A stretch of DNA of 64,000 bases, taken from an uncultured Verrucomicrobiota bacterium (lineage in GTDB: Bacteria; Verrucomicrobiota; Kiritimatiellia; CAIKKV01; CAYSLU01). Below, piece after piece: positions 8,325 to 38,259 of the stretch. Position 1 is the first letter of the stretch; each line of letters starts with the position of its first letter. The DNA is taken from positions 3,824 to 67,823 of the forward strand of contig CAYSLU010000004.1 in the NCBI GenBank assembly GCA_964431965.1, read 5' to 3'. The position numbers and the translations under genes were made by a program. The notes under the pieces were generated by a model that ran no database searches, was not told where the DNA came from, and saw only the letters and a program-made list of their open reading frames with translations.

Positions 8325-8326
8325 GC

Positions 8327-13850: not shown

Positions 13851-13988
13851 GCGGTGGATTCTCTCAAATGAGGCGCGCGGCTGGCTATATGAATCGTTTT
13901 ATATGAGCACGCGCGACGCCCCCACAGCCGGAGCCCCGCCCACATGAACGCAACGCGCGGCCCCAGAATCACATCGGGCGGGCGCCGG

Positions 13989-16451: not shown

Positions 16452-16650
16452 GTGACGTCTCCTCCTTGTCGCGTCCAACCCAATGGGGATGCTCCCATTC
16501 CACAGCAGCGAGGCAAAGCTCATTCTTCGTACCGCGGAGTCGCGGATTGACGGGGAGGCCGAAAACCGTTTTGATCTGCCCGAACGAATCCACCGGAGTC
16601 TGCGCGCGCCGGCGCGGGAGACCCGGACCAACAGATCAACCCGGATCCAC

Positions 16651-21450: not shown

Positions 21451-23142
21451 GTGAGCACTGCGGCCAGAGGAGACACCCCCGCCGGGCGTGGAGCAAGCGG
21501 CGCTGGGCCGGCGACCTACAGCATCGGCACGTTGACCTACACGAAGATGGGCCTGGTGGCTCTCTTCTCCTGGCTGCTCTGGGGCGACTTCTGCTGGTCG
21601 CTCATGGAGGCGGTGGTGCCGAGCATCATGCCGCTCAAGCTCCGCTCGCTCGACTCGTCGAACGCCCTGATCGGCTTCATCATGAGCAGCCTGCCGGCCG
21701 TGATGAACCTGACGATCACTCCCTATCTCAGCTTCCGCAGCGACCACCATCGCGGGCCGCTCGGCCGCCGGACGCCCTTCATCCTCTACACCATCCCCTT
21801 CATCTGCCTCTCGCTGGCGCTGATCGCCTACAGCGACTCGATCGGGCGCTGGGTCAACACGGCCTTCCTCTCGGGCGATCCGGCAAGCGAGGCCAAGGTG
21901 GTCATCCTGCTGCTGGCCATCTTCGTGGCGCTGTTCGACTTCTTCAACATGTTCGTCAGCACCGTCTACTGGTACCTGTTCGCCGACGTGGTGCCCAAGG
22001 AGATGATCGGCCGGTTCATGGGCTGGTTCCGCCTGGTGGGCGTGGTCGCCGGCTTTCTCTACAACTTCTTCGTCTTCCCATACGCGATGAGCCACATGCG
22101 GGAGATCTACATCGGGGCCTCGCTGCTCTACCTGGTGGGTTTCGGCATCGTGTGCCTGCGGGTCAAGGAAGGGCAGTACCCGCCGGCTGCGGAGCAGAAG
22201 CGCGAGTCACCCTTGGCGAAGATGCGGACCTACGCGCAGGAGTGCTACCGGCTCCGATACTACTGGGACATCAACCTGATGTATGCCATCCAGGCCCTGT
22301 CCGCGTGCATGGGGGTGTTCAACATCTTCTTTCTCCAGTCGCTTGGCCTGGACCTGAAGGTGATCGGGCGCACGCACGCGCTGGCGGGGGTGGCGCTGCC
22401 CATCGCCCTGCTGTTCGCCGGCAGCCTGGTGGACCGCTGGAACGCCGTCCGGGTGAACGCCTACTTCGGCGCCGTGGGCGCCTTCACCTGCGTCGGCCAG
22501 TGGGTCTGGGCCTTCGTAACCCAGTCGCCGCCGTCGCAGCTCTGGCTCTGGATCAGCGTGGCCTCCTCGTTCTGCAGCGCCCTCGGCTCCGCCATGATGG
22601 CCGTCGTCGAGATCCCCCGACTGATCGAGCTCTTCCCCCGTGAGAAGTTCGGCCAGTTCTCGGGAGCCATCGCGCTGCTGCGCGGCCCGGCGCGCATGGT
22701 GGGCGGGTTCCTGGCCGGGCTCTTCGTCGACCTCTGGGTGCGCTTCATCTTCCCGAAAGAGACCCACGGCCTCTACGGCTACCGGTTCGAGTTCCTCTGG
22801 ACGGCGCCCCTCACGGTCCTGGCTTTCTACTTTCAGTACCGGACCTTCCGCACCTGGAAACGGCTGGGCGGCGGCGTCAACTTCGCCCCGCCGACCCAAC
22901 CCTTCCGGCTCCGCGATCTTCCGCCGCGAGCGGACGGCGACAACTACGTGCGCTGGGGCCTGGTGCTGATCCTTTCGATCGGCGCGCTGGGCGGCCTGCT
23001 CGGCAGCCTGACGTGGTGGTGGTACTACACCTTCCGGACCACCGACGCCTGGGCATCGGCGGCCTTCTCCGTGTCGTGGCTCATATACGCCGCCCTGTTC
23101 GCCGCCGGCGTCCGCTTCATCAAGTTCATGGAGCGGCCGTGA
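21451..23142 (+). CDS. MFS-type permease (glycoside-cation symporter-like)
   Basis: 563 aa with multiple hydrophobic helices (LVALFSWLLWGDFCWSLMEAVVPSIMPL, FILYTIPFICLSLALIAY, ...). GTG start at 21451 (alternative ATG at 21546). Divergent from the BNR gene across a 434-bp intergenic region. Confidence 0.7.
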   Translation: MSTAARGDTPAGRGASGAGPATYSIGTLTYTKMGLVALFSWLLWGDFCWSLMEAVVPSIMPLKLRSLDSSNALIGFIMSSLPAVMNLTITPYLSFRSDHHRGPLGRRTPFILYTIPFICLSLALIAYSDSIGRWVNTAFLSGDPASEAKVVILLLAIFVALFDFFNMFVSTVYWYLFADVVPKEMIGRFMGWFRLVGVVAGFLYNFFVFPYAMSHMREIYIGASLLYLVGFGIVCLRVKEGQYPPAAEQKRESPLAKMRTYAQECYRLRYYWDINLMYAIQALSACMGVFNIFFLQSLGLDLKVIGRTHALAGVALPIALLFAGSLVDRWNAVRVNAYFGAVGAFTCVGQWVWAFVTQSPPSQLWLWISVASSFCSALGSAMMAVVEIPRLIELFPREKFGQFSGAIALLRGPARMVGGFLAGLFVDLWVRFIFPKETHGLYGYRFEFLWTAPLTVLAFYFQYRTFRTWKRLGGGVNFAPPTQPFRLRDLPPRADGDNYVRWGLVLILSIGALGGLLGSLTWWWYYTFRTTDAWASAAFSVSWLIYAALFAAGVRFIKFMERP

Positions 23143-23414
23143 AGCCACACGAGCCATGAAGGCGACGCTCAGCACATGACCATCATTATCAGCGCCCTGC
23201 ACTTCGCCTGGAGGGGCATCGACGCGTGTTTCGCGCGAGCGAAGAACGACCTGCGGCTCGATGGCGTCGAGTTCCCGGTCCGGGAGGATCGCCGCCTCTT
23301 TGACGCCTGCGTGGGCGATCTGCGGCGGCGCTGGAAGCCGGCCCCACCCGACGGCAAGCCGGGTGGAGCGGCAACCGGGCGAGGATGATCAGAAGGCCAG
23401 AAAGGACGAATCCT

Positions 23415-24554
23415 ATGACAGCCCCCTTCCCGTCCGACCAGGACTCCCGCATCGACTCGCGCATCGCCGCGAACCTCACCCGGCTGGCCCAGGAGCTGGT
23501 CGACCAGCGCGCCGCGCGCGTGCTGGTCCGCCCGCTCGAGAACTCCGACGGCTTCTGGTTCGGCGGCGGCAACATGGTCCGGCTGGGCGACGGATCCCTC
23601 GCGGTAGTCGGGCGCCATCGCGTGGCCGGCGACTCGCGCACGGGGCTGGTGGCCGGGCAGCGGGGCGCGCAAATGGCCGTCTACCGGGCCGCGACGTTCG
23701 ACCGGCCGTTCGAGAAGATCCTCGCATTCGGCAAGCCCGCGGTCGCCCCCGCCGGAAAGGAAGTCGTCTCGATCGAGGGCACCTCGCTGCTCGTGCGGCC
23801 GGACCAGGTCGAGCTGTACGTCTCGTCGGAGAAGACCGACCTGTATCCCGACGGCATCCGGGACTACCAGAAGCCGGGGACCGGCATCTGGACGATCGAG
23901 CTGATGGAGGCGGCGGGCCTCGACGCCCTCGCCGCCGGAACCGCCCGGACCGTGCTCGCCTCGCGCGAGCCGGCCACGGTACACGTCAAAGATCCCAAGG
24001 CCTACGCCGAGCCCGACGGGAGCACGACCGTCCTCTTCTGCACGCACCCGTTCAGCTGGACCTGCAGCAACACCGCCGTCGCGGTGCGCCAGCCGGGCGC
24101 CCGTGACTTCCAGATCACCGTCCGCACGCTCCTGGAGAAGGGACTCGTATGGGATGTCGCGGCGACGCGCGTCACGGATCGCATGCCCGTCCCGCGAATC
24201 GGCCGGCTGCGCGGCCTGCCGCCGCTCTCGCTCTACTTCTACGACGGCGCCGAGTGCGTGCGGCAGCTGCCGGACAACGCGAAGGCCGTCCGGCGGCCGC
24301 GCGGCTACTCGTGCGAGGAGATCGGCGGCGTGGCGGTGGGCATCGACGCCGACTTCCCCCGGCTGCACCGGCTCTCGGTCAACGCGCCGCTCTTCATCTC
24401 GCCGTCGGGCACAGGGTGCAGCCGCTACGTCTCGACGCTCGTCGAGGCCGATGCGATCTACGCCACGTGGCAGCAGTCGCAGGACGACCGCTCGCAGCCG
24501 CTCGTCGGACACGCGCTGCCGATGGAGCAGGTCGAGCGGATACTGGCGGAGTGA
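23415..24554 (+). CDS. Hypothetical protein (possible beta-propeller glycosidase-like)
   Basis: The track ORF is 23385..24554. Start chosen at the ATG at 23415, preceded by AAAGGA. Normal amino-acid composition, in contrast to the Arg-rich antisense ORF 23169..24563. Confidence 0.45.
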   Translation: MTAPFPSDQDSRIDSRIAANLTRLAQELVDQRAARVLVRPLENSDGFWFGGGNMVRLGDGSLAVVGRHRVAGDSRTGLVAGQRGAQMAVYRAATFDRPFEKILAFGKPAVAPAGKEVVSIEGTSLLVRPDQVELYVSSEKTDLYPDGIRDYQKPGTGIWTIELMEAAGLDALAAGTARTVLASREPATVHVKDPKAYAEPDGSTTVLFCTHPFSWTCSNTAVAVRQPGARDFQITVRTLLEKGLVWDVAATRVTDRMPVPRIGRLRGLPPLSLYFYDGAECVRQLPDNAKAVRRPRGYSCEEIGGVAVGIDADFPRLHRLSVNAPLFISPSGTGCSRYVSTLVEADAIYATWQQSQDDRSQPLVGHALPMEQVERILAE

Positions 24555-24713
24555 CGCTGACACACGTGCAGCGGCACGCCGATCTGCCCGCTCGGAGCTG
24601 GGGCCTCACGGCCTCCGGCGGCGTTGACCCGCTTGCCACGGCCGTCTACCATTGGAGCAGTGAGAGGCACGCTGGGGTCCGCCTCGGTCCCCGGCGTCAG
24701 CGGGAGAAGCGGC

Positions 24714-24989
24714 ATGCGCGACGACCTGATTGCGGCGCTCCGGAAGATGCTGGTCGAGGACCTGTTCGTGGAAATCCCCGCGGACCAGATCGGCCTGGAT
24801 GACGGGCTCCGCTCGGTCGTCGGCTTGGACTCGGTCGGCTTCGTGGAGCTCCGCGTGCTCTGCGAGCGCCGCTTCAACGTGCAGATCAGCGACGACGACT
24901 ACACGCCCGAGAATTTCAGCTCCGTCCGCCTGGTGGCCGCCCTGATCGATCGCCTGCAGAGCGCGCGCCCGTCGCCGGGTCCCGGATGA
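24714..24989 (+). CDS. Acyl carrier protein
   Basis: The track ORF is 24624..24989. Start at the ATG at 24714, preceded by GGGAGAAG. Phosphopantetheine attachment motif GLDSVGFVEL in a ~90 aa acidic protein. Confidence 0.75.
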   Translation: MRDDLIAALRKMLVEDLFVEIPADQIGLDDGLRSVVGLDSVGFVELRVLCERRFNVQISDDDYTPENFSSVRLVAALIDRLQSARPSPGPG

Positions 24990-25046
24990 CGGCCGCGCCT
25001 CCCCGCAGGCGCGCGGGTGTTCGCCATCCGCCGCGGGAGCAAGACG

Positions 25047-26153
25047 ATGAGCGTTGGCGTAACGGGCATGGCGTGGACCACCGCGCTCGGCGACGACCTC
25101 GACGCCGTGTGGGTGCGACTGCTCGCCGGGGAGACCGGCCTGGCCCCGCTCCCGGCTCCCAGCCCGCTTCGCAGCGAGCTGGCCGCCTCCATCCCGTCCA
25201 TCCCGCTGGCGCTCCCGCCCTCCGAACGGCTTGTCCGCATGGCCTGCGATGCCGCCTCGCGGGCGATGTCGGCCGCCGACTGCGACCCGCGCGACCCCGG
25301 CGTCCGCCTCATTCTGGGCACCAGCCTCGGGGGCCTGATCGAGGATGACCCGCCGGCCGCGACGGCGCACGCGTGGGCCGACGCGTGCGCGCGACTCCTC
25401 GGCTTCGCCGGCCGGCCCATCGTCGTCTCGACCGCCTGCTCGGCCGGATCGGACGCCATCATGCTGGGCGGCGAGCTGATCCGCGCCGGCGTCGCCCGGT
25501 GCTGCGTATGCGGCGGCGCGGACGTGCTGACCCTCAGCAAGCGGCTGGCCCACTCGACGCTCGGCACGATGTCCGCTTCCATGCTCCGCGCGTTCGACGT
25601 CCGGCACGACGGCACGCTCCTCGGCGAGGGCGCGGGATTCCTCATCCTGGAGGCCGACGGCTCGGCCGCACGCCCGGTGGCCCGGCTGCGCGGCGCCGGC
25701 TCCAGCAGCGACGCGACGAGCATGACCGCGCCGGATGCAACGGGGGCCGCCGCGTGCCTCGCGCTGGAGCGCTCTCTGGCCGACGCCGGCGCAACGCCCG
25801 CCGACGTCGCCGTCATCAACGCTCATGCGTCGGGCACCCCGCTGAACGACGCCACGGAGCAGGCCGCCTTCAACCGCCTGTTTCCAGGGCCGGATCGGCC
25901 GATCGTGTTCGGCACGAAGGGAAATTTCGGTCACAGCCTGGGCGCCACCGGGGCGCTCGAGGCGATCGCGCTCGTCCGATCGCTCGCCACCGGCCGGGTG
26001 CCGCCGGTTGTCGGTCTCGAGCAGCCGGTCCCGGGCTTTCACCCGCCGCTGCCGCGCGGCGCGCCGGCCCAAGCCCCCGCCGGCCTGGGCTTGAGCCTCA
26101 CCCTCGGGTTCGGCGGCTTCAATACGAGCCTCGTGTTCGAGAGGTGCTCATGA
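25047..26153 (+). CDS. Beta-ketoacyl-ACP synthase (FabF/KAS II-like, short form)
   Basis: Active-site Cys block IVVSTACSAGSDAI, His blocks AVINAHASGTPLND and GTKGNFGHSLGATGALEAI. Start at the ATG at 25047 after GGGAGCAAG. Confidence 0.85.
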   Translation: MSVGVTGMAWTTALGDDLDAVWVRLLAGETGLAPLPAPSPLRSELAASIPSIPLALPPSERLVRMACDAASRAMSAADCDPRDPGVRLILGTSLGGLIEDDPPAATAHAWADACARLLGFAGRPIVVSTACSAGSDAIMLGGELIRAGVARCCVCGGADVLTLSKRLAHSTLGTMSASMLRAFDVRHDGTLLGEGAGFLILEADGSAARPVARLRGAGSSSDATSMTAPDATGAAACLALERSLADAGATPADVAVINAHASGTPLNDATEQAAFNRLFPGPDRPIVFGTKGNFGHSLGATGALEAIALVRSLATGRVPPVVGLEQPVPGFHPPLPRGAPAQAPAGLGLSLTLGFGGFNTSLVFERCS

Positions 26154-26752
26154 TCCCGCTGGCGCCATTTCCCGGGGGACTCCTCGATCTGGGCCGGGGC
26201 GAGGCGGCCGAGCGGGATCGGAGCCTGTTCGACGCCCGGCTGTCCACGGCGGTCCGCTACGCGGACCCCGCGTCCTGGGTCACGGCAACGGCGGTCGGCC
26301 GCGCGGCGCTGGGCCTGAAGGCGGAGCTCTCGGCCGCGCGCGACGGCGTCGCCGTCGTCGGGGCCAGCGAGCAGGGCGCACAGGCGACGCTCGCCGCGGT
26401 GGCCCAGGCCGCGCGCGAGGGATACTCGTCGCCTCTGCGCTACCCCGCCGCGAATCCCGGCGCCATCGTCGGCGTCGCCTGCATCGCGTTCGGCTTCCGG
26501 GGCCCCACGCTGAACCTCCTCCAGGCGCCCGAGGACGCCGCCCCCCTGGCGCTCTTCATGGCGTCGCGCTGGCTCTCCCGCGGGGCCGCGCGCTACGTGG
26601 TGGCGGCCGTATGCCGCCACTCCGGGCCGGAGCGCTGCCTGGCCCGGGCCATCGTCCTCGGCCCCCGCCTCGCGACGGAGCCGAGGGAGCCGCCAGCTTC
26701 AGATGCGGTGGCGTGGCTGGCCGGGGCCCCGCGGGAGAGCCCCGCACGATGA
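26150..26752 (+). CDS. Hypothetical protein, KS-associated (possible non-catalytic thiolase-fold partner)
   Basis: 200 aa, in the frame of track ORF 25373..26752. ATG at 26150 overlaps the KS stop (ATGA) and is preceded by GAGG. Translationally coupled on both sides. Confidence 0.4.
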   Translation: MIPLAPFPGGLLDLGRGEAAERDRSLFDARLSTAVRYADPASWVTATAVGRAALGLKAELSAARDGVAVVGASEQGAQATLAAVAQAAREGYSSPLRYPAANPGAIVGVACIAFGFRGPTLNLLQAPEDAAPLALFMASRWLSRGAARYVVAAVCRHSGPERCLARAIVLGPRLATEPREPPASDAVAWLAGAPRESPAR

Positions 26753-28155
26753 ATGTCTCCGACGTGCTCGCGCCGGATAAGATCGACCGCTTCCTCGCAG
26801 GCGCCCGCGACTTGGACGAGGAAGCCGGCCCCGCGGATTGCCCGCCGGTGGCGGAGCTCGCCCGGTCCTGGCGGTCCTGGGGCCTGAGCCCCGGCGACCT
26901 CGTCATCCTCGCCCTCCCGAGCGGCTCCGACCTGCTTCGCCAGTTCTTCGGCGTCGCGGCGGCCGGCGGCGTCCCGGCCCTCGTGGCACCGGGCACGCCG
27001 TCCGCGCGCCTTCGCGAGCTCGTTGCCGGCATGCACGCGCGCGCCATCGGCGCCCCGCACATGCACCGCGACCTCCCGGCGTTCGCGCGACACGGCCGTC
27101 TCGGCCGCATCCAAGCCGGGCTGTTCGCGGCCGCGCCGGAGCCGGCCGCCGCGCCCGGCGAGGTCGTGCTGCTCACGTCGGGAACGTCCGGAGCGCCCAG
27201 CGGCTGCGTCTTCGGCCTCGACGCCCTGCTGCGCAATGCCGCCCGCCACGCCGACGCGATCGGGCAGCGCCCGGATGATGTGGTGCTGGTCACGCTCCCC
27301 CTGCACTTTTCATTCGCCCTCGTCGCGCAAGCGCTGGCCACGCTGCTTCGGGGCGGACGCCTGGTGATCGCCGGCCCGCCGTTCCACCCGCCCAGCTTCG
27401 CCCGGACCATCGACGAGGCGGGGGTCACCGTCTCGTCGCTGACCCCGGCCGGCGTCCGCGCGCTGTTCCGCTCGCCCGGGCGCGCGACGCCGCGGCTGCG
27501 CGTGCTGACCGTCGGCGGCGATGCGCTGCCGCCGGTCCACGCGGCCCGGCTGCTCGCGGACGGCTGCGCGCAGGAGCTGTACCTGACCTACGGGCTCACG
27601 CAGGCCGGGCCCCGGGTTTCGACGCTGGCCGCGCACCGCGAGCCTTCCGCCCGCCACGCCTCGGTGGGCCTCCCGCTGCCGGGAACGAGCGCGCGGCTGG
27701 CGCCGGTCGGCGACGGGTCGGGCCGCACGGAGCTGCTCGTGACTTCGGACACGCTGATGCGACGCCGGATCGGACGCGTCGAGGGCCGCCCGGGCGCCGA
27801 CTGGCGAGCGCCGAACGTGCTGGCCACGGGCGACGTATTCGATCAGGATGGCGACGGCTACCTGTACTTTCGCGGGCGGCTGTGCGATTTCATCGTGCGC
27901 CAGGGCGAGAAGATCTGCCTGGCGAGCGTCCGCCGGGAGGCGGCAGCGCTGCCGCGCGTGGTGCGGGTGCGGACCGAGCCGGTCACGCGCGAGGATGGCG
28001 ACGCGGACTTCGACCTGGTGCTCGTGACCGATGGCGCGGCCCCGGCGGACCCGCGGGACTTCCGCGGAGCTCTGCGCCGCGTGCTGTGCCGGGGCGAGAT
28101 GCCGCGGCACATCCGCCTCGAACCGGAGGGTGGCGACCATGACGGCTACAAGTGA
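26749..28155 (+). CDS. AMP-dependent synthetase/ligase (fatty acyl-AMP/CoA ligase-like)
   Basis: AMP-binding motif LLTSGTSGAPSG, and DGYLYFRGRLCDFIVRQGEKI (A8-like). Start at the ATG at 26749, overlapping the upstream stop. Confidence 0.8.
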   Translation: MNVSDVLAPDKIDRFLAGARDLDEEAGPADCPPVAELARSWRSWGLSPGDLVILALPSGSDLLRQFFGVAAAGGVPALVAPGTPSARLRELVAGMHARAIGAPHMHRDLPAFARHGRLGRIQAGLFAAAPEPAAAPGEVVLLTSGTSGAPSGCVFGLDALLRNAARHADAIGQRPDDVVLVTLPLHFSFALVAQALATLLRGGRLVIAGPPFHPPSFARTIDEAGVTVSSLTPAGVRALFRSPGRATPRLRVLTVGGDALPPVHAARLLADGCAQELYLTYGLTQAGPRVSTLAAHREPSARHASVGLPLPGTSARLAPVGDGSGRTELLVTSDTLMRRRIGRVEGRPGADWRAPNVLATGDVFDQDGDGYLYFRGRLCDFIVRQGEKICLASVRREAAALPRVVRVRTEPVTREDGDADFDLVLVTDGAAPADPRDFRGALRRVLCRGEMPRHIRLEPEGGDHDGYK

Positions 28156-28954
28156 GCGACCGAGCCCCGGCCCCGGCGGAGCGGAACGAGCCATGGACCA
28201 CACGTCGCTGCGGAGGCGGCTCGCCCGATCGGACCACTGGGGCCCCACGCTGATGCGCCGCTGCTATCGCGGCATGTTCCGGCTCTCGCTGCCCGCGCCG
28301 CGCCTGGTCGTCCGCCCCCTGCTCTGGGCGTACCTCGCGGTCCGATCCGCCTGGCACTTCTTCCTCCGCGTGTTCGTATGCGAGCCGCTGTTCAAGGCCT
28401 ACTGCCGAAGCTACGGCCGGAGCCTCCGGACCGGCATCAGCCTGCACTGGGTCCAGGGACGCGGCGATATCGTGATCGGTGACAACGTCTGGATCGACGG
28501 AAAGTCCACCTTCACGTTCGCCCACCGGTTCGCCGACCGGCCAACGCTCCGGATCGGCGACCGCTCGGGCATCGGGCACAATTGCACGTTCGTGATCGCC
28601 AAGGGCATCACGATCGGAAAGCGGTGCCTGATCTCGGGTGACGTCCTGGTCTTCGACTCGAGCGGGCACGCCACGGATCCGGATGCCCGGCGGATCGGCC
28701 AGCCGCCCGGCGATGCGGACGTGCGGGAGGTGACGATCGGGGACGATGTCTGGATCGGCGTGCGGAGCATCGTCTTTCCGGGCGTCCGCATCGGCGACGG
28801 GAGCGTGGTCTCCGCCGGGTCCGTGGTCCGCACCCACGTCCCGCCCCGGTGCGTTGTGGCCGGCAATCCCGCGCGGGTCGTCTTCCGCATGCCGCCGCCC
28901 GCGTCCGACGCCACGTCCCCGGCCTCCAGCCGGGCTCCGTGGATGGGCACGTGA
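28139..28954 (+). CDS. Hexapeptide-repeat (left-handed beta-helix) acyl/acetyltransferase
   Basis: Start at the ATG at 28139 after GGAGGG. It overlaps the ligase 3' end. Hexapeptide repeats IGDNVWIDGKSTF, IGDRSGIGHNCTFV, IGKRCLISGDVLVFD, IGDDVWIGVRSIVFPGVRIGDGSVV are of the maltose/galactoside O-acetyltransferase / WcaF type. Confidence 0.8.
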   Translation: MTATSERPSPGPGGAERAMDHTSLRRRLARSDHWGPTLMRRCYRGMFRLSLPAPRLVVRPLLWAYLAVRSAWHFFLRVFVCEPLFKAYCRSYGRSLRTGISLHWVQGRGDIVIGDNVWIDGKSTFTFAHRFADRPTLRIGDRSGIGHNCTFVIAKGITIGKRCLISGDVLVFDSSGHATDPDARRIGQPPGDADVREVTIGDDVWIGVRSIVFPGVRIGDGSVVSAGSVVRTHVPPRCVVAGNPARVVFRMPPPASDATSPASSRAPWMGT

Positions 28955-28999
28955 GGAAGGTGGCCAGTGGTGAGTGGCGCTTGGCTTAGGCCCTTCAGG

Positions 29000-30427
29000 T
29001 CAGCGGCCGGCGTCACGGCGGGCGAATGCGGCGGCGGCGTACGCGCGCCACTTGGCGGCGGCGCGGCGCAGCAGGTGCGGGTGCAGCGCGTAGCGCATCC
29101 GGGCCAGCCGGACCGGCTCGCCGAACCGCTTGCGGTCCACATCCTCCTGGATCAGCCGGTACCAGTGCTCCAGCCGCTCGCTCGAGATCGCGCGCGTCAG
29201 CACGAGATCCGGGTGAAAGCCCCAGCCGCCCAGCTTCTCATAGCTCCAGCCGGGATCCTCTGAAACGAGGCCGGCCCGCTTGGCGTCTTCCCACGTCTCG
29301 GTCCCGGGCAGCGGCGTCAGATGGCAGATCACCGCCTGGTCGAGGTCGGGGCTGCGCACGAGCGCGTGCGTCTCGGCGATGTCCGCCTCGGTCTCGTCCG
29401 GCGCACCGATGATCATCGTCGCCATCGTCCGCATCCCGTGCTGCTTGCACAGCTTCAGGGCCCGGTAGTTGTCGGCAACGGTCACCGCGCCCTTCTTGTA
29501 GTACCGCAGCATACGCTCGGATCCGGACTCGAGTCCGAACACGACCGACGCCACGTTCAGCCGCTTCAGCAGCTTCATCATCTCGTCGTCGATGAGGTCG
29601 GCCCGAGCGAAGACGCAGAAGCGCGTGCGGCGCGTGATGCCCCGCCCCTCGGCTTCATCGACGATCTGCCGCAGGCGCGTGCGGTTCGCGACGAACAGGT
29701 CGTCCCAGATCATGATGCCGTCGAGCGGGTACGCCGCCAGCATCTGCTCGATCTCATCGGCGATGCGCGCCGGCGAGAACGCCCGGAATTTCCGCCAGAA
29801 CAGGCGCGGCGAGCAGAACACGCACTGGAAGGGACAGCCGCGCGACGTCAGCATCGACGCGTAGACGCCGATCCGGTCGAAGCCGGCCTTCCGCGGCACG
29901 AGGTAGCGGTCCTTCATGCGCAGCAGGTCGCGCGCCGGGAACGGCACGCGGTCGAGCGGCTCGATCAGGGGGCGCGGCTCGGTCTGCTCGCTCGCTCCGC
30001 GCTCGTTCCGGAAGACCAGCCCCTTTACCCCGCGCAGCGCGGCCGGGGAGAACCCGCCGGCTGACTCGAAAAGCCGCAGCACCTCCATCATGGTCTCCTC
30101 GCCCTCGCCGATCACGCCGAGGTCGAAGTTCGACGCCGCCAGGTGCTGCGGCAGGTAGGAGATGTGGTAGCCCCCGGCGATGACGGGGACGCCGAGCTCC
30201 GCGCGGACCGCCCCTGCCAGGCGGTTGGCCGCGGGGAAGAGGAAGCTCAGGCACGAGATGCCGACCAGATCGGGCTTCAGCCGGCGCAGCGCGGCCATCG
30301 GGTCGTCCTCATCGACGATAACCGTGTCCCGGAAGCCCGCATACTCGCGCAGGTACGCGGCGATGTACGCGAGCCCCAGCGGGGGATCGTCCTCATGGCT
30401 CGGCAGGTTGACAAGGGCCAGTTTCAC
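29000..30427 (-). CDS. B12-binding domain radical SAM protein (class B radical SAM)
   Basis: 475 aa. N-terminal cobalamin-binding Rossmann region (MKLALVNLP...GISCLSF). Radical SAM cluster motif SRGCPFQCVFCS. Convergent with the acyltransferase gene. Confidence 0.85.
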   Translation of the reverse strand: MKLALVNLPSHEDDPPLGLAYIAAYLREYAGFRDTVIVDEDDPMAALRRLKPDLVGISCLSFLFPAANRLAGAVRAELGVPVIAGGYHISYLPQHLAASNFDLGVIGEGEETMMEVLRLFESAGGFSPAALRGVKGLVFRNERGASEQTEPRPLIEPLDRVPFPARDLLRMKDRYLVPRKAGFDRIGVYASMLTSRGCPFQCVFCSPRLFWRKFRAFSPARIADEIEQMLAAYPLDGIMIWDDLFVANRTRLRQIVDEAEGRGITRRTRFCVFARADLIDDEMMKLLKRLNVASVVFGLESGSERMLRYYKKGAVTVADNYRALKLCKQHGMRTMATMIIGAPDETEADIAETHALVRSPDLDQAVICHLTPLPGTETWEDAKRAGLVSEDPGWSYEKLGGWGFHPDLVLTRAISSERLEHWYRLIQEDVDRKRFGEPVRLARMRYALHPHLLRRAAAKWRAYAAAAFARRDAGR

Positions 30428-30553
30428 GCTTGCACGCGGCCACCATCTTCGCCGCCGGGCGGAGCCCCGTCAATCGCCGTCCGATTCCACTTGAATCACG
30501 CGCTGGCCGCCGCATAGTGTAGGCCCCGGTGCGGGCTTCACCCGTGGAGGAGG

Positions 30554-31168
30554 ATGTCCATGGATCTCATGAGCGCGTGGTGGGGCGGACTGCAGCCGGC
30601 AAACCAGTTCTTCTACGGGGCGGCGGCGTTCTTCAGCGTCCTGTTCCTATGGCAGCTTGTGTCCGCGATCCTGGGCCTCGGCAGCTCGCATCTGGACGTC
30701 GATACGAACCCCGATCCGGGCTGGGACCACGCATCGCCGGCCGATGCCCACGACACGGTCATGGCCTTCCAGCTCGTGAGCGTGCGCTCGATCCTGGCGT
30801 TTTGCACGCTGTTCACGTGGGCGGCCGCGCTATACCTCGACCACAGCGTGCCGCTCGGCCGGGCGCTGCTCTACGCGCTGGCCTGGGGCGCGGCGGCCAT
30901 GGTCCTCGTGTCGTGGCTGCTCCATTTCATGCGCCGGATGACGGAGAGCGGCACCATGCAGATCCGGACGGCCGTTGGCGCAAGCGGCACCGTGCACCTC
31001 GACATACCGGCCGGCGGCCTGGGCGAGATCCGCTGCCTGTGCAGCGGGGTGATGACTCATTTTCGGGCGCGGACCGCCGACGGAACCGCGCTGAAGGCCG
31101 GTGCGGTCGTCACGGTCTCGCGGGTGCTGGGGCCGAACACCGTCGAGGTGCAGCCCGGTCCACGCTGA
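30554..31168 (+). CDS. NfeD-like membrane protein (flotillin-associated)
   Basis: 204 aa with N-terminal TM helices and a C-terminal OB-fold-like segment. Start may be the second ATG at 30560 (RBS GGAGGAGG). Immediately upstream of the flotillin gene. Confidence 0.65.
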   Translation: MSMDLMSAWWGGLQPANQFFYGAAAFFSVLFLWQLVSAILGLGSSHLDVDTNPDPGWDHASPADAHDTVMAFQLVSVRSILAFCTLFTWAAALYLDHSVPLGRALLYALAWGAAAMVLVSWLLHFMRRMTESGTMQIRTAVGASGTVHLDIPAGGLGEIRCLCSGVMTHFRARTADGTALKAGAVVTVSRVLGPNTVEVQPGPR

Positions 31169-31223
31169 GCGGATCGACGTCGGGCGGGCGGGAGCACAGA
31201 GGAACGGAAGAGGGAGAACGCGG

Positions 31224-32777
31224 ATGAGTACACTCAGTGGGATCGGAGTCTCTTTGGCGGCCATCGCCTCGCCTGTGGCTGACAGCGCACCGACGGCGGG
31301 CGGCGGCGGACCCACCGGGATCTTTCTCGGACTCCTGCTCGCGGTGCTCCTGCTGGTGATCCTGGTCACCTTCCTGAAGCGCTACCGGCGCTGCCCGTCC
31401 AACAAGATCCTGGTCATCTACGGCAAGACGAACAGCGGCGCCGCCCGCTGCATCCACGGCGGCGCGGCCTTCATCTGGCCCCTGTTCCAGGCATACGACT
31501 ACCTCGACCTCGAGCCGTTCGTGGTGCCGATCGACCTCGCGAACGCGCTGTCCCAGGAGAACATCCGCGTCACCGTGCCCACCACCGTCACGGCCGCGAT
31601 ATCCAACCAGTCCGGGATCATGGAGAACGCCGCCGTCCGCCTGCTCGGCCAGAGCCGCGACCAGATCAAGGAGCAGGCCCAGGACATCATCATCGGCCAG
31701 ATGCGCGCCGTCATCGCCACGATGAAGATCGAGGACATCAACCGCGACCGCCAGGTGTTCATGTCCAAGGTGAACGAGGCGGTTGCCGTCGAGCTCGAGA
31801 AGATCGGCCTTACTGTCATCAACGTCAACATCCGCGACATCGACGACGAGTCGGGCTACATCAAGGCGATCGGCCGGAAGGCCGCGGCCGAGGCGGTGAA
31901 CCAGGCGAACGTCGACGTGGCCGAGCAGGAGAAGACCGGCCAGATCGGCGTGGCCGCGCGGCAGCGCGATCAGCGCGTGGCGGTCGCGGCGGCGATGGCC
32001 GACGCCCAGATCGGAGAGGCCACGGCGGACCGGAACAAGCGCCAGCAGGTGGCGAAGCTCGACGCCGAGGCCGTGAACGCCGAGACCGGCGCGAACGCCC
32101 AGAAGGCCAGCTACCGCGCCAACCAGAAGGTGGCGGAAGAAGAGGCCCGCAACCGCGGCGACTCGGCCGCGAAGGAAGCGGACGGCGCCATCCGCGTCGC
32201 CCAGGAGAACGCGCAGAAGAAGGCGGAAGACGCGCGCGCCATGCGCGAGCAGTCGCGCTACAACGCGGAGATCGTGGTCCGCGCCGACGCCGAGCGGAAG
32301 TGCGTGGTGATCTCGGCGGAAGCCCAGAAGGAGCAGGCGATCCGGATCGCGCAGGGCCAGGCGGAGGCGACCGTCGCCAAGATGACGGCCGAGGCCAAGG
32401 GCGTGCAGGCGATCCTCGACGCCAAGGCGGAAGGCTACCGGCACCTGGTGCAGTCGGCCGGCGAGCCGCAGGCGGCCGCCACGCTGCTCATGATCGAGAA
32501 GCTGCTCGAGGTCGCCAACGTCCAGGCGAAGGCGATCCAGAACCTCCCGATCGAGAAGATCGTGGTCTGGGACGGCGGCAACGGCGGCGGAATGACCGAC
32601 CTCGGGAAGAAGATCATGGGCGCCCTGCCGCCGATGCACGAGCTCGCGCGCCAAGTCGGGCTGGACCTGCCGGCCTTCCTGGGCCGGATCGAGGCCACCG
32701 CGCCGGCGGCGCATCCGCCGGCCGCGTCCAAGGCCGACGCCCCCGCCGGCGCGGCGCCGGGCGCGGACAAGGCATAG
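31224..32777 (+). CDS. Flotillin / SPFH (band 7) domain protein
   Basis: Start at the ATG at 31224, in the frame of track ORF 31101..32777. N-terminal TM segment, SPFH core, and a long Ala/Glu/Gln-rich coiled-coil flotillin domain (EAQKEQAIRIAQGQAEATVAKMTAEAKG...). Confidence 0.85.
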   Translation: MSTLSGIGVSLAAIASPVADSAPTAGGGGPTGIFLGLLLAVLLLVILVTFLKRYRRCPSNKILVIYGKTNSGAARCIHGGAAFIWPLFQAYDYLDLEPFVVPIDLANALSQENIRVTVPTTVTAAISNQSGIMENAAVRLLGQSRDQIKEQAQDIIIGQMRAVIATMKIEDINRDRQVFMSKVNEAVAVELEKIGLTVINVNIRDIDDESGYIKAIGRKAAAEAVNQANVDVAEQEKTGQIGVAARQRDQRVAVAAAMADAQIGEATADRNKRQQVAKLDAEAVNAETGANAQKASYRANQKVAEEEARNRGDSAAKEADGAIRVAQENAQKKAEDARAMREQSRYNAEIVVRADAERKCVVISAEAQKEQAIRIAQGQAEATVAKMTAEAKGVQAILDAKAEGYRHLVQSAGEPQAAATLLMIEKLLEVANVQAKAIQNLPIEKIVVWDGGNGGGMTDLGKKIMGALPPMHELARQVGLDLPAFLGRIEATAPAAHPPAASKADAPAGAAPGADKA

Positions 32778-32785
32778 GCAGACGA

Positions 32786-33991
32786 ATGAAGAGCGTGGCG
32801 TATCGGATCGGCGCGGCGGCATTCCTCGCGGCGGCGCTCGTGTGGACGGCGGGAGCGGCGGCGCCCTCGGGCATCGCCCCCGCCGCACAGACCTCGCTGT
32901 ATCCCGCCGAGGACTCGCTGGGGCGGTGGGGGTTCATCAACCGGCGCGGGGAATTCGCCATACCGCCGCAGTTCGACTTCGCGTGGAATTTCGTCGGCGA
33001 CTACGCGGCCGTGGCGGCGGGCCGGAAGCTCGGCTTCGTCAATCGCTCGGGCATGGTGGTGGTGGAGCCCCGGTACGACGAGGCGGAGGAGTTTTCCGAC
33101 GGCCTGGCGCGCGTGATGACCGACGCCCGGATGACGATGGAGGGAAGTCCCGCCGGGCCCGCCGAGATGATCCGGTACACCTTCCAGTTCATCCGGCCGT
33201 CCGGGGAGCCGGGGTTCGCGCGGACGTTTGAGACGCTGGATCGCCCGTCCGCCCTCACCCCGGAGCCGTTCGAACGGCTCAGCTCCTCGTTCTATCCGCG
33301 CCCGTTCTCCGAGGGCCTGAGCGCCTTTTCCGAGGGCGGCCGGGTCGGGTACATGAACACGAACGGGGTCACGGTCATTCCGCCGGCCTTTCTCGGCGGC
33401 GGCGATTTCCGCGAGGGCGTCGCCTGCGTATGGACCGAGAAGGGATGCGCGTTCATCGACCACGAAGGGACGGTCGCCGTCCGGCTGCCGCCGGACGTGA
33501 CGCCGGGCCTGTATACGTTTCAGGAGGGGCTGGCGATCGTGCGCGTCGGCGGCCGATTCGGGTACGTCGGCCGCGACGGCCGCATGGCGATCCCCGCCCG
33601 CTACGCCGTGGCCTATCCGTTCTCCGAGGGGCGCGCGCTGGTGGGCTGGCACCGGCGGCCATGGAGCCCGATACGCCTGCTGCGGGGAGAGCGCGATACC
33701 GAGTGCACGTATGTGACGGCCGCCGGGATCGCCGCTTTTCCCGGCCGGTTCGGCCTGACCCGGCACGGCGAGTTCTCCGAAGGTCTGGCGGTGGCCCGGC
33801 GCCCGGGCGATGAGCGACTGGGCTATATCGACACCACCGGGCGGTTCGTCATCCCTCCGCAGTTCGCGCTCGCCTGGCCGTTCAGGGGCGGGCTCGCGCG
33901 GGTCGTGCGGATGGAGAAGCGGAGCGGCGGGGAGCAGGCGATCGTGATGTACATCAATGCGCTCGGCGCCACCGCGTACCGGACGCGCTGA
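32786..33991 (+). CDS. WG-repeat (KWG-like beta-repeat) secreted protein
   Basis: Start at the ATG at 32786 (MKSVAYRIGAAAFLAAALVWTAGAAAP, a signal peptide). Repeated units GxxGFINRRGEFAIPPQF, GFVNRSGMVVVEPRYDEAEEFSDGLARV, GYVGRDGRMAIPARYAVAYPFSEGRALV, GYIDTTGRFVIPPQF. Confidence 0.7.
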   Translation: MKSVAYRIGAAAFLAAALVWTAGAAAPSGIAPAAQTSLYPAEDSLGRWGFINRRGEFAIPPQFDFAWNFVGDYAAVAAGRKLGFVNRSGMVVVEPRYDEAEEFSDGLARVMTDARMTMEGSPAGPAEMIRYTFQFIRPSGEPGFARTFETLDRPSALTPEPFERLSSSFYPRPFSEGLSAFSEGGRVGYMNTNGVTVIPPAFLGGGDFREGVACVWTEKGCAFIDHEGTVAVRLPPDVTPGLYTFQEGLAIVRVGGRFGYVGRDGRMAIPARYAVAYPFSEGRALVGWHRRPWSPIRLLRGERDTECTYVTAAGIAAFPGRFGLTRHGEFSEGLAVARRPGDERLGYIDTTGRFVIPPQFALAWPFRGGLARVVRMEKRSGGEQAIVMYINALGATAYRTR

Positions 33992-35670: not shown

Positions 35671-36437
35671 GCACACCCCTGGTCGAGTACGCCCGGTCCG
35701 GCCGACGCGTGGACGCCTTTCCGATCTTCGACGCCCACGCCCACGTCTACTCCGCCGCCGACCCCAGCGCGCCGTCGATCGCCGAGCGGCTGGTCCGCAT
35801 GGACCGGCTCGGCATCGTCCGCTGCGCCGTGAGCTCGTCTGTCGCGATCGGCGCCGAGTTCGAGGAGGGCAATGACGACGTGGCAGAGGTGGTGCGCGTC
35901 CACCCCGACCGGTTCATCGGCTACTGCCACGTCAGCGCCAACTACGCCGACGGCGCGCTGGCGGAACTGAAGCGGTGCTTCGGCACCGGTCTGTTCAAGG
36001 GGATCAAGGTCTATCAGACGGGCACGGCGTTCGACGACCCGCGTTTCGACGCCGTGTGGGAGTTCGCGGTGGCGCATCGCACGCCGGTGCTGGCGCACAC
36101 GTGGGGCGGCGCGCTCACCGGCTTCGACACGGCCGCCGCAAAGCACCCGGAGATCGCGTTCCTCGCGGGCCACGCCGGCAGCGGGTTCGCCTACCAAGCG
36201 TACATTGACGCGGCCAAGCGGGTGCCGAACCTCTACCTCGACCTGACCTACTCGCGCGAGCACACGAACATGATCGAGACCATGGTCCGCGCCGTCGGCG
36301 CCGACCGGGTCGTCTGGGGCACGGACGAGCCCCTCTTCTCGATGGAGCACCAGCTCGGCAAAGTCCTCTTCGCCGACATCCCGGACGAGGACAAGCGGAA
36401 AATCCTGAGCACAAACGCCGCGAGGCTGTTTCGGTAG
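35667..36437 (+). CDS. Amidohydrolase-2 family protein (second copy)
   Basis: GTG start at 35667 overlapping the upstream stop (GTGA), in the frame of track ORF 34893..36437. FDAHAHVY metal-binding start, HTWGG, and VWGTDEP terminal motif typical of amidohydrolase_2. Confidence 0.65.
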   Translation: MSTPLVEYARSGRRVDAFPIFDAHAHVYSAADPSAPSIAERLVRMDRLGIVRCAVSSSVAIGAEFEEGNDDVAEVVRVHPDRFIGYCHVSANYADGALAELKRCFGTGLFKGIKVYQTGTAFDDPRFDAVWEFAVAHRTPVLAHTWGGALTGFDTAAAKHPEIAFLAGHAGSGFAYQAYIDAAKRVPNLYLDLTYSREHTNMIETMVRAVGADRVVWGTDEPLFSMEHQLGKVLFADIPDEDKRKILSTNAARLFR

Positions 36438-36810
36438 GCGCGTGGAGGGACAGGCGACTACTCTGCGGTCCCTTCAGTTCGTGCCGCTCGGCGGCACCGC
36501 GAAGGGCTTGTGCCCGGACACGGTGGCTGTCCTGGCAGACGGATACGACCAGATGCAGGAGAGCGGATACTTCTCGAAGTCCTGAAGGGCGGCGGCGATC
36601 TCTTGGCGGTGGTCGGGCATTTGAGAAGCGGGAGGGTTGATTTTCGATTGTTGACTGGCGGAGACAGTATCTTCTTTTCTACCCTCTTGAGAGGGTAATA
36701 CCCTATCTCCTCAGACGGCGGGATGATAGGTAGTTCCGTACGCAGTTCAATGGGTAGTACCTGATTCCACGCTCCGTATTACCCAATAAATTACCGATTA
36801 ACATTACCGA

Positions 36811-37854
36811 TTACCCAATACGCCGCCATTTCGCATGCTTACCACGGCCAAGACACTTCACTCTGCTATCTAACCGCATATCCTTCAATATCTTGCGAAT
36901 CATGTCCAGGCTGACTTCCGGACATCGTTTCTGAAGCTCGGTTACGTGAAACTCCCCCGCGAAGCTTGCGATCGCTTGGTGGACGACGGCGGTCTTGTCG
37001 CCCACAGGCAGAGACGTGTCTTCGTACCGCGACTCGAACTCTCGATACACTTCCTTCAGGGTGAACAGGAGGTAGTTGGCGTACGGCCAGATGCTGTGTT
37101 TGCCTTCGTGCCAACCTTGGGAACTCTGTTGGAGGGTTTCGTAGTACCGGGCCTTGCTCTGCTCGATGGTTCGCTCAAGGCTGATGTACCGGCCGGCCGT
37201 GAAGCCCTGATGGTAGAGCGAAAGCAGGAGAAGCAGTCGGGATACGCGTCCGTTGCCGTCGCGGAATGGGTGGATGCATAGAAAATCGAGGTTCATGGCG
37301 GCCCAGACGATCAGCGCAGGCACTTCATGCTCCTTGATCAACCGATCGAAGATCTCGCAGGTGTGCGCCACGGCCGCCGGGGTTTCCCTGGCCGTCATCG
37401 GTTTGAACCGCAGCGTGACATGGCCGTCCGGGTGTTTCTCGATGATCTCGCCATCCTGCGCCTTGAGCTTGCCGCTGTCGTAGCCTTCCGGGTGACTCAA
37501 CTCATGCAAACGAAGGACTGTCTCAACGGTCAGCGGCAGTCGTTCCGCTTCAGCATGGATCCATGCCAATGCAGACTGATACCCCCGAACTTCCTGTTCG
37601 TTCCGATCGCGAAGGATGCCCTTGCCGAAGACCACGGTGCCGACCCGCCGCCGATCAATCTCAACACCTTCGATCCGGTTGGACGCCACCGCGCTTTCGA
37701 TGATGGCGTTCTCGCGCAAGCGGGCGAGTTTCTGCGGGGACTGCTTCGTAAACAGCTCCTGCTTACCTCGGTACTCGGCCAGTTCGTTCAGGAGCCAGAC
37801 CGTGGCCATTGGGATCTGGGGTGGTTGACGGAGAAGCAGTTCGAGGGTTCTCAC
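36811..37854 (-). CDS. fic: Fic family protein (class II, with Fic_N inhibitory helix and C-terminal wHTH-like tail)
   Basis: Canonical Fic motif HPFRDGNGRVSRLL. The N-terminal Fic_N region carries the S-xxx-E-G inhibitory motif (ASNRIEGV). Local GC is clearly lower than in the flanks. GTG start in the track, alternative ATG at 37809. Confidence 0.85.
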   Translation of the reverse strand: MRTLELLLRQPPQIPMATVWLLNELAEYRGKQELFTKQSPQKLARLRENAIIESAVASNRIEGVEIDRRRVGTVVFGKGILRDRNEQEVRGYQSALAWIHAEAERLPLTVETVLRLHELSHPEGYDSGKLKAQDGEIIEKHPDGHVTLRFKPMTARETPAAVAHTCEIFDRLIKEHEVPALIVWAAMNLDFLCIHPFRDGNGRVSRLLLLLSLYHQGFTAGRYISLERTIEQSKARYYETLQQSSQGWHEGKHSIWPYANYLLFTLKEVYREFESRYEDTSLPVGDKTAVVHQAIASFAGEFHVTELQKRCPEVSLDMIRKILKDMRLDSRVKCLGRGKHAKWRRIG

Positions 37855-38259
37855 GATGGGCGATTTTCGAGGTTCGATTGTTGCTTGCTCAGACGGGTGG
37901 TCTTGGCGGCGGAGGTGAAGATGGCGGTGAGTTCGTTGGCTTCAGTCAGCAATGGGGTCACGAGTTTCTCCGCGAGGAGGCCTCCATCGACTTGCCCTGT
38001 GCGGTCTCCTGATCGAACAACTGACAGAGCGCGTCGTAGGGCTCGGTCTTCCCGAGCGCGAGTTCGCGGAAGAGGCTCAGAATCGTCCTGGTCTGGGTGA
38101 AGGCGCGGCGGACCCGCCCGTCCGCGCCATGGGCCGCAGGGCTGCCACCCTGGCTCTGTGATCCCTTAGTCACACTGGGGGGCACTCTACTCCGCGGTCG
38201 TGGTTCAGTCCAGTCCGTGGCGGGACAGGCGTTGAACCGACGCCCGCCCCCGCCGCCGG

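Follow-up and report, generated by a model that had tools for sequence, protein, structure and literature searches.

A putative minimal-type ketosynthase-cyclization factor cassette with a linked left-handed beta-helix acyltransferase in an uncultured Verrucomicrobiota bacterium

The 64-kb stretch of DNA analysed here (positions 3,824 to 67,823 of contig CAYSLU010000004.1 from an uncultured Verrucomicrobiota bacterium; hereafter, the window) contains a cluster of six genes, namely five plus-strand genes encoding an acyl carrier protein (ACP), a ketosynthase (KS), a 200-aa partner of the KS, an adenylate-forming ligase, and a left-handed beta-helix (LbH) acyltransferase, and a convergent gene for a B12-binding radical S-adenosylmethionine (SAM) enzyme. 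The first four proteins very probably constitute a noncanonical type II polyketide synthase (PKS)-like system of the AmcB/AmcF/AmcG/AmcH (Cfa1/Cfa3/Cfa4/Cfa5) type. We assign a probability of roughly 60% to the fuller reading that the plus-strand operon is a minimal-type member of this family with a dedicated LbH acyltransferase and works by the mechanism proposed below. An initial annotation, made from the sequence alone, had described the cluster as a cryptic acyl/lipid-type one; this identity was not upheld, because the ACP, the KS, the partner ORF, and the ligase all exceed the cut-offs for AmcB, AmcF, AmcG, and AmcH, respectively.

Identity of the four-protein core

The identity of the core was judged by NCBIfam equivalog models with curated cut-offs. 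The ACP scored 114.6 bits against the AmcB model NF058660 (cut-off 80), the KS 499.3 bits against the AmcF model NF058662 (cut-off 325), and the partner ORF 125.3 bits against the AmcG model NF058659 (cut-off 80). The ligase scored 523.6 bits against the AmcH model NF058661 (cut-off 370), which is named 'adenylate-forming 2-oxoglutaryl-ACP ligase', and the match covers model positions 3-450 of 458. Every sequence-level feature that defines the AmcBFGH family and could be tested was found. The KS scored 180 bits against the fabF equivalog TIGR03150, below the cut-off of 493.75, and no fabD, fabG, or fabZ gene lies nearby, in agreement with the earlier statement that this is not a housekeeping fatty acid synthase operon. 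The statement that it is not an aryl-polyene cluster also stands: there is no ketoreductase (KR) or dehydratase (DH) gene, and the partner protein is AmcG, not a chain-length factor (CLF). Both identities were ruled out by the NCBIfam scores.

A PDB sequence search with the family profile of the partner protein found no match, and a fold search was therefore needed. Its AlphaFold (AF2) model, built from 28 homologues (pLDDT 86.7, pTM 0.85), showed the best PDB fold match to 6kxd_B (the ishigamide CLF), followed by the small partner chains 7f28_A/C, AntE, and ApeC, and the predicted fold is a truncated, CLF-like thiolase fold. What had been called a 'KS-associated ORF' thus appears to be a KS partner indeed, and more exactly a cyclization factor (CYF; AmcG).

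Hibi et al. (2023; PMC10698177) reconstituted a noncanonical type II PKS-like system from the amipurimycin cluster, in which AmcH loads 2-oxoglutarate onto AmcB, and the AmcF-AmcG heterodimer extends it by one C2 unit taken from malonyl-ACP and closes the ring, yielding ACP-bound 3-oxocyclopent-1-ene-1,2-dicarboxylate. AmcG was named the 'cyclization factor' in that study and was compared with the CLF chain of 6KXD (PMC10698177). By equivalog-level homology, the AmcH-type ligase of the window would adenylate 2-oxoglutarate and load it onto the dedicated ACP. Malonyl-ACP would be provided by the housekeeping FabD, as in the Amc and Cfa systems, there being no acyltransferase for this step in the cluster. 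The KS-CYF heterodimer, judging from homology and from the CLF-like fold of CYF, would then catalyse one decarboxylative condensation, an intramolecular aldol reaction, and a dehydration to generate ACP-bound 3-oxocyclopent-1-ene-1,2-dicarboxylate. Gene fusions and the invariable linkage to the cassette suggest that the LbH protein would act on the carrier-bound thioester, most likely by transferring or releasing the ring acyl group to a nucleophile, and the convergent radical SAM enzyme would be a tailoring enzyme, most likely a C-methylase, present in a subset of loci. That the core makes a five-membered-ring ACP intermediate is, on the strength of these homologies, probable.

The single condensation on a dedicated ACP proposed in the initial annotation is accepted, whereas the acyl starter is not: the AmcH cut-off is exceeded, and the predicted starter is 2-oxoglutarate rather than a fatty acyl group. 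We therefore regard as highly improbable a fatty-acyl or lipid pathway in which an acyl-AMP ligase would activate a fatty or other acyl starter for one condensation, a surface polysaccharide or lipid would receive the acyl group, and the major facilitator superfamily (MFS) and flotillin genes of the window would be functional neighbours. The generic domains (AMP-binding, KS, ACP, and Hexapep) are compatible with such a pathway and the surrounding genes are polysaccharide-related, but the ligase scores at most 95 bits on any fatty-acid ligase model, as opposed to the AmcH score given above, the KS partner is AmcG, and the MFS gene, a neighbouring gene for a 379-aa protein, and the flotillin gene never accompany the cassette elsewhere.

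Gene organization of the cluster

The features of the cluster are given below. All coordinates are positions in the window, and the labels L0xx and P0xxx used in the following sections denote the loci and proteins, respectively, of the relatives compared.

24624..24652, plus strand: promoter-like sequence TTGACC-17-TACCAT, supported only weakly, within the 160-nt spacer that precedes the ACP gene
24714-24989, plus strand: ACP, AmcB/Cfa1 type, 91 aa, phosphopantetheine Ser39 in LDS (NF058660 and PP-binding)
25047-26153, plus strand: KS, AmcF/Cfa3 type, 368 aa (NF058662 and motifs)
26150-26752, plus strand: CYF, AmcG/Cfa4 type, 200 aa, Cys-less half-thiolase partner of the KS (NF058659 and fold)
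26749-28155, plus strand: adenylate-forming acyl-ACP ligase, AmcH/Cfa5 type, 468 aa, predicted 2-oxoglutaryl-ACP ligase (NF058661)
28139-28954, plus strand: LbH (hexapeptide) acyltransferase, 271 aa (Hexapep); the alternative start at 28193 gives 253 aa
29000-30427, minus strand: class-B (B12-binding) radical SAM enzyme, 475 aa (B12-binding and Radical_SAM), convergent with the LbH gene

The cassette extends from approximately 24620 to 30427 and has a G+C content of 73-76%, slightly higher than that of its flanks (approximately 70% for the window). All six ORFs of the initial annotation were recovered at their coordinates, and independent gene calls on public metagenome contigs encoding identical proteins gave the same layout. 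Its domain assignments were also reproduced, with Pfam finding PP-binding, the N- and C-terminal ketoacyl-synt domains, AMP-binding, Hexapep, and B12-binding plus Radical_SAM; no Pfam domain was found in the 200-aa partner ORF. The ACP contains the sequence GLDSVGFVEL with Ser39, and the KS triad is intact, as had been noted, comprising Cys130 (TACSAG), His260 (HASGT), and Lys291/His296 (KGNFGHS). With regard to translational coupling, the KS/CYF and CYF/ligase junctions are both ATGA overlaps, and the ACP and KS genes are 57 nt apart. The ligase/LbH junction is a 17-nt overlap if translation of the LbH gene starts at 28139 and a 37-nt gap if it starts at the second ATG (28193). The stop codons of the LbH and radical SAM genes do converge, with 45 nt between them, and neither a terminator scan nor an inverted-repeat search detected a terminator or inverted repeat in this interval. 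In Pfam and NCBIfam scans, no KR, DH, enoylreductase, thioesterase, or glycosyltransferase was found inside the unit, consistent with the initial annotation. The promoter-like site is the sole sigma-70-like match within 23000-31500 (0.4 expected from shuffles), and an Rfam scan of the window gave no RNA family at the gathering threshold.

Comparison with the known Amc and Cfa systems

Three types of clusters have been defined, namely the minimal (amcB, F, G, and H), coronafacic acid (CFA; amcB, E, F, G, and H), and cispentacin (amcB-H, seven genes) types (PMC10698177). Cispentacin additionally requires AmcE (a hot-dog decarboxylase), AmcC (an aminotransferase), and AmcD (a thioesterase), and CFA requires Cfa2, which is a homologue of AmcE (PMC10698177). 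No Aminotran_3, thioesterase, or hot-dog match corresponding to AmcC, AmcD, or AmcE was found in the window by Pfam and NCBIfam scans, which covered the neighbouring genes and most large ORFs but not every small ORF, and the operon contains no spare coding space for AmcE/Cfa2. ORFs of the classical loci L043-L045 (Amycolatopsis, Dactylosporangium, and Vitiosangium) match the window only at 24677-28143. Because amcB, F, G, and H are present and AmcC, AmcD, and AmcE were not found, the cluster corresponds to the minimal type and to neither the CFA type nor the cispentacin type; lacking the last three proteins, it cannot have cispentacin as its product.

The window shares with the cispentacin machinery (AmcB/AmcF-AmcG/AmcH) the same four proteins, the same coupling of the KS and CYF genes, and the CLF-like fold of CYF, but it has the LbH and B12-radical SAM genes instead of those for AmcE, AmcC, and AmcD, and its host is a PVC-like polysaccharide degrader, whereas the amipurimycin host is an actinomycete. 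The CFA module (Cfa1/Cfa3/Cfa4/Cfa5) contains the same four-protein ring-forming core (PMC10698177); however, neither the Cfa2/AmcE hot-dog decarboxylase nor the downstream type I PKS is present in the window. Known minimal-type clusters (for example, those of the FR900452 producer and of Agrobacterium/Burkholderia) have the same defining gene set, and their product was predicted to arise from the intermediate 2-ACP (PMC10698177). Window-type clusters differ from them in the invariable linkage of the LbH gene as a fifth gene and in the accessory set, which consists of genes for a short-chain dehydrogenase/reductase (SDR), a thiamine diphosphate (ThDP) enzyme, a methyltransferase, and sometimes a radical SAM enzyme, as compared with a prostaglandin-H2-reductase-like gene in the known minimal type. 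The KS-CLF pairs of highly reducing type II PKSs (ishigamide Iga11/Iga12, 6KXD; ApeO/ApeC, 6QSP) likewise combine a KS with a smaller, Cys-less partner of thiolase fold, but CYF is approximately half the size of a CLF and would support one condensation and cyclisation rather than iterative elongation, with no KR or DH involved.

Cassettes were previously reported from Proteobacteria, actinomycetes, Firmicutes, and Ignavibacteriae (PMC10698177). From the set of hosts described in the next section, the supplementary lists of that study include only Minicystis, Vitiosangium, and one Planctomycetes protein; the present subtype and its phyla (Acidobacteriota, Lentisphaerae, and most Planctomycetota) are not discussed there, and neither the text nor the supplement mentions an acetyltransferase, a ThDP-enzyme, or a radical SAM partner (PMC10698177). 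Later literature describes myxopentacins from cispentacin-type clusters (PMC13445942). Our literature searches retrieved nothing on an LbH-linked amc cluster or this subtype, nor on an LbH release domain following the thiolation (T) domain of nonribosomal peptide synthetases (NRPSs).

Conservation of the five-gene unit

With a CYF protein alignment as the query, a scan of one genome per species identified 35 loci. Their hosts are Terracidiphilus and other Acidobacteriota, Thermoguttaceae, Phycisphaerales, and other Planctomycetota, Polyangiaceae, Minicystis, and Lentisphaerae, together with one Thiobacillaceae metagenome-assembled genome and three classical producers. The gene order ACP-KS-CYF-ligase-LbH is found in 30 of these 35 reference-genome loci, where the LbH orthologues are 47-66% identical, and also in the metagenome loci L046-L054 and L057. 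In total, the five-gene unit occurs in approximately 40 loci of Acidobacteriota, Planctomycetota, Myxococcota, and Lentisphaerae. ACP orthologues with 56-79% identity occupy the same position in other loci, and LbH orthologues with 47-69% identity lie directly 3' of the ligase gene in approximately 38 loci. Clustering of ORFs across the loci revealed three recurrent extra genes: 28 loci encode an SDR, 21 an acetolactate-synthase-like ThDP enzyme, and 24 a class I methyltransferase. A tblastn search gave no match to any of the three in the 64-kb window. Conversely, the 35 reference loci contain no match to the radical SAM, 379-aa protein, MFS, Kelch, 'NfeD', and flotillin genes of the window. 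When the co-conservation of the six genes of the initial annotation was checked, five were found to be co-conserved across phyla, but the radical SAM gene was found only in a subset of loci.

The cluster thus represents a conserved, uncharacterised subtype of the KS-CYF machinery, with the core ACP-KS-CYF-ligase-LbH, usually accompanied by the SDR, ThDP-enzyme, and methyltransferase genes and sometimes by a B12-radical SAM gene. The KS-CYF ring machinery was described only in 2023 and just two product families have been worked out. This subtype is frequent in Acidobacteriota of soil and peat and in PVC bacteria, groups whose secondary metabolism is poorly known, and almost no natural products have been characterised from Acidobacteriota, Planctomycetota, Myxococcota, and Lentisphaerae.

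In a neighbour-joining (NJ) tree of the KS and ligase, calculated without support values, the window groups with L051, L011, L046/47, and L049/50. The window cluster appears to be a reduced and derived one, from which the genes for the SDR, ThDP enzyme, and methyltransferase of most relatives have been lost. In L051, a bare ACP-KS-CYF-ligase-LbH unit is located between unrelated genes (CBASS-like on one side and PQQ/TonB on the other), indicating that the five-gene unit can stand alone. The proteins of L053/54 are 73-86% identical to those of the window, and the dN/dS values between the window and L053 were 0.11 for KS, 0.33 for CYF, 0.24 for the ligase, 0.19 for LbH, and 0.13 for the radical SAM fragment. 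These values (0.11-0.33) indicate that the reduced cluster is maintained under purifying selection. It is accordingly very unlikely that the window cluster is a decaying remnant that yields no product after the loss of the three accessory genes: although none of these genes has a counterpart in the window, all five testable genes show the low dN/dS values just given, the catalytic motifs are intact, the same reduced layout is present in a relative with an 88% identical radical SAM protein, and the bare unit of L051 is independent of it. From the reduced form in the window and the bare form in L051, it seems that a product may be made and released with no more than five genes, which offers a compact target for heterologous expression.

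Several further observations were made in the related loci. The cassette of L051 lies directly downstream of CBASS-like defence genes (L051:1-3722; CD_NTase_C and Cap15). In the KS orthologues of L046 (6243-6245) and L047, codon 113 is an in-frame TGA instead of the TGG (Trp) of the window; this stop codon is identical in an ENA and a Logan assembly and is either a genuine nonsense mutation of that population or an error shared by the reads. For the cluster methyltransferase (L046:11561-12655 and orthologues), the best NCBIfam match was the 2-ketoarginine 3-methyltransferase model (115 bits; cut-off 425). There are hints that the methyltransferase of the relatives might C-methylate an alpha-keto acid, such as a 2-oxoglutarate starter.

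The LbH acyltransferase

In sequence and fold searches, the LbH protein matched maltose and galactoside O-acetyltransferases, Vat, WcaF/WbbJ, NeuO, and AntD, with only residues ~110-250 covered. It scored 75.2 bits against the maltose O-acetyltransferase model (cut-off 314) and 66.7 bits against the WcaF family (cut-off 192), is below all equivalog cut-offs, and has no full-length match to the maltose acetyltransferase (MAT), galactoside acetyltransferase (GAT), or WcaF proteins. The LbH fold and the catalytic His are nevertheless present: the model is a beta-helix, and the protein has a DSSGH motif, the His177 of which is invariant in 30 sequences. The AlphaFold model (pLDDT 91.7) contains three N-terminal helices (residues 24-88) that have no counterpart in the matched structures, and the N-terminal helical extension of ~90 residues is conserved and includes a CEPLFKAYC motif. 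Hydropathy of the N-terminus gave no support for a transmembrane anchor (maximum 19-residue Kyte-Doolittle value, 1.14). All 39 distinct LbH orthologues keep the N-terminal signature (R..A.S, P.P, CEPxFKxYC, and G....TG....W) and the DSxGH motif.

The subfamily is small, as an exhaustive search of 1.84 billion representatives retrieved 134 proteins at E ≤ 1e-30. Seven of the best 30 matches are NRPS modules carrying the domain after the last carrier domain, with the organization adenylation (A)-T-LbH in P0364, P0366, P0367, and P0368, condensation (C)-T-LbH in P0365 and P0370, and T-C-A-T-LbH in P0371 (1945 aa). Fusions of LbH with PP-binding were found in P0372 and P0379, also among the best 30, and in P0492, which ranked lower. 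The whole N-terminal signature and the DSxGH motif of the window protein recur in the fused domains, and the nearest relatives, with 45-58% identity over the full length (N-terminal extension included), are T-LbH termini of NRPSs or fusions of LbH with a carrier protein. The terminal T-LbH domains of P0364-P0371 are 47-54% identical to the window LbH and are distinct from the Pls/PosA type.

In PosA, a beta-helix domain located after the T domain uses the carrier-bound thioester as acyl donor (PMC10522769). The C-terminal polymerisation domain of the Pls/PosA homopoly(amino acid) synthetases is likewise a beta-helix acyltransferase-like domain following a carrier domain, but it has three helices interleaved with transmembrane segments, whereas the window family has a single soluble LbH with an N-terminal helical extension. 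The window LbH scored only 29.3 bits (2.7e-7) against the Pls/PosA model TIGR02353 (cut-off 423), and its NRPS-fused relatives gave no match to this model. Given that the nearest relatives are NRPS T-LbH termini and carrier fusions, and given the PosA precedent, it is fairly likely that the LbH protein acts on a carrier-bound substrate, and its initial reading as a sugar O-acetyltransferase is weakened by these fusions. No version of the cluster contains a thioesterase, which makes the LbH protein the best candidate for off-loading; its assignment as the off-loader of the ring is put forward tentatively. More doubtful is the broader proposal that it represents an unrecognised class of carrier-protein off-loading (release or transfer) domain, consisting of a soluble LbH with the CEPxFKxYC extension, which would be NRPS-terminal in some proteins and free-standing in KS-CYF cassettes, so that the five-gene unit would be a self-contained machine handing a cyclopentenone dicarboxylate built from 2-oxoglutarate to an acceptor, with a B12-radical SAM modification added in the lineage of the window. 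The fusions tie the LbH subfamily to carrier proteins and, if this proposal is true, it would be a new type of release domain common to NRPS assembly lines.

Several points weigh against the proposed operon function. The whole assignment for this clade rests on homology to characterised relatives, the 2-oxoglutarate specificity of the ligase is predicted solely from a hidden Markov model built on such relatives, and the NJ tree carries no support values. The radical SAM gene is absent from most cassette-bearing loci, including all 35 reference-genome loci. The catalytic part of the LbH protein is most similar to acetyl-CoA-dependent O-acetyltransferases, and family members at 38-42% identity are fused to family 2 glycosyltransferases (GT2). 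A single AmcH-LbH fusion, P0385, has a C-terminus that diverges as if frameshifted and is given low weight. Finally, L058 contains an orthologous LbH gene (57% identity) but no ACP, KS, CYF, or ligase gene within 9 kb, and the LbH protein therefore does not strictly need the cassette nearby.

In an alternative reading, the Amc-type core is the same but the LbH protein is an ordinary acetyl-CoA-dependent O- or N-acetyltransferase (MAT/GAT/Vat/WcaF-like) for tailoring or self-protection that would acetylate the product or an acceptor, release from the ACP taking place by another route, for example through a hydrolase encoded elsewhere or spontaneously. In its favour are the best matches by family and by structure, namely those to maltose and galactoside O-acetyltransferases, Vat, WbbJ/WcaF, and NeuO, as well as the GT2 fusions and the occurrence of the L058 LbH without a cassette nearby. 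However, those matches are far below the cut-offs and restricted to the residues noted above, whereas the nearest full-length relatives are carrier-fused; moreover, the LbH gene is kept in clusters without the SDR (the window and L051), in which there is no obvious hydroxyl group to acetylate, and the lack of a thioesterase in any cluster version also speaks against it. On balance, an acetyltransferase role appears unlikely, and action on the carrier-bound ring is preferred.

The L058 locus (L058:4795-11966; ENA ERZ6863929, a 210-kb contig) has the organization SDR-ThDP-second radical SAM-radical SAM, convergent with LbH-SDR, and its radical SAM protein is 53% identical to that of the window; the accessory set can thus occur apart from the PKS cassette. 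This block is embedded among thrS, infC, rplT, pheST, and hisF.

The B12-radical SAM gene

The product of the convergent gene matches PF02310 (66.6 bits) and PF04055 (78.1 bits) and contains C198xxxC202xxC205, and it therefore combines the B12-binding domain and the CxxxCxxC core of class-B enzymes. Its best PDB match was 9ccb (5e-17). Characterised class-B enzymes (TsrM, TokK, AprD4, BchE, and HpnR) have the same N-terminal B12-binding domain and radical SAM core, but all subfamily models (BchE, HpnR, TsrM, PhpK, and others) were matched below their cut-offs, the best being BchE (149 bits; cut-off 481), and with no equivalog cut-off reached, the reaction type cannot be assigned from these models. 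Its chemistry is most likely C-methylation. Among the PADLOC defence models, the only match was a weak one to the radical SAM core.

Orthologues with 53-88% identity adjoin the LbH gene in L046, L048, L049/50, L053/54, L057, the contig of P0124, and L058. In these seven further loci, the radical SAM/LbH pair is convergent in six and on the same strand in L048. L046, L049/50, and L057 have the organization SDR-ACP-KS-CYF-ligase-LbH with the radical SAM gene convergent with the LbH gene, and in L046 and L049/50 it closes an operon with the order ThDP-methyltransferase-radical SAM. L048 carries the same set of genes in a co-linear arrangement. At the end of L053/54, there is a convergent fragment of the radical SAM gene with 86-88% identity to the window protein. 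The P0124 contig, which encodes a radical SAM protein with 88% identity, matches the window in its reduced gene arrangement, down to a divergent gene for a ~206-aa protein without a Pfam domain. The radical SAM-bearing loci that could be placed in the NJ tree (L046/47 and L049/50) fall in the part that contains the window.

The radical SAM gene might instead be a mere neighbour with no role in the pathway, as its absence from 35 of 35 reference loci, its location on the opposite strand, and the occurrence of homologues with 45-50% identity in archaea and many other lineages would allow. We consider this rather doubtful: orthologues lie directly beside the LbH gene in eight independent contigs (the window included), and in L046, L048, L049/50, L057, and L058 the gene adjoins ThDP, methyltransferase, or second radical SAM genes. 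Membership in the pathway, as an accessory enzyme in a subset of loci, is the likelier reading, and we favour it with reasonable confidence. A second radical SAM gene, encoding 540-560 aa and having no counterpart in the window, is present in three loci (L049:14260-15882, L057:1760-3442, and L058:7325-9004); its product scored 554.6 bits against the PhpK-family P-methyltransferase model (cut-off 600).

Neighbouring genes and genomic context

The two genes that the initial annotation had noted upstream of the cluster, for an MFS permease and a hypothetical protein, are present. The hypothetical protein (379 aa; 23415-24554) adjoins the gene for the 563-aa MFS permease and has no Pfam or NCBIfam domain. 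Planctomycetota and Verrucomicrobiota contain >1,600 homologues with 50-60% identity to it, and NCBI labels some of them exo-alpha-sialidase. A 94% identical orthologue, recovered from the sample that also yielded the P0124 contig, has unrelated genes after it, with no ACP gene adjoining. Membership of the MFS and 379-aa protein genes in the cluster was ruled out, as neither has a match in any related locus and the 94% orthologue has the context just described. Of the flotillin/NfeD operon described on the other side of the cluster, the flotillin gene (Band_7) was confirmed, but the 'NfeD' label of the 202/204-aa gene could not be retained, there being no Pfam or NCBIfam match. A domainless gene of similar size to this one (30554-31168) occupies the same divergent position beside the radical SAM gene in the P0124 contig. 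The MFS, 379-aa protein, 'NfeD', and flotillin genes are unrelated neighbours of the cassette. Downstream of the flotillin gene, positions 32300-33991 encode a protein with many WG-containing beta repeats (PF14903, 166 bits).

The surrounding window has the gene content of a polysaccharide degrader. Positions 466-16895 and 40088-42892 contain genes for a sulfatase, a glycoside hydrolase family 2 (GH2) protein, a heparinase II/III-like protein, three DUF4838 proteins (two with GH2-like parts), and LacI- and GntR-type regulators. The segment at 36001-38000 has a G+C content of 0.60, as compared with ~0.70 elsewhere, contains a gene with a Fic/DOC domain (36811-37854, minus strand), and may be a foreign insertion.

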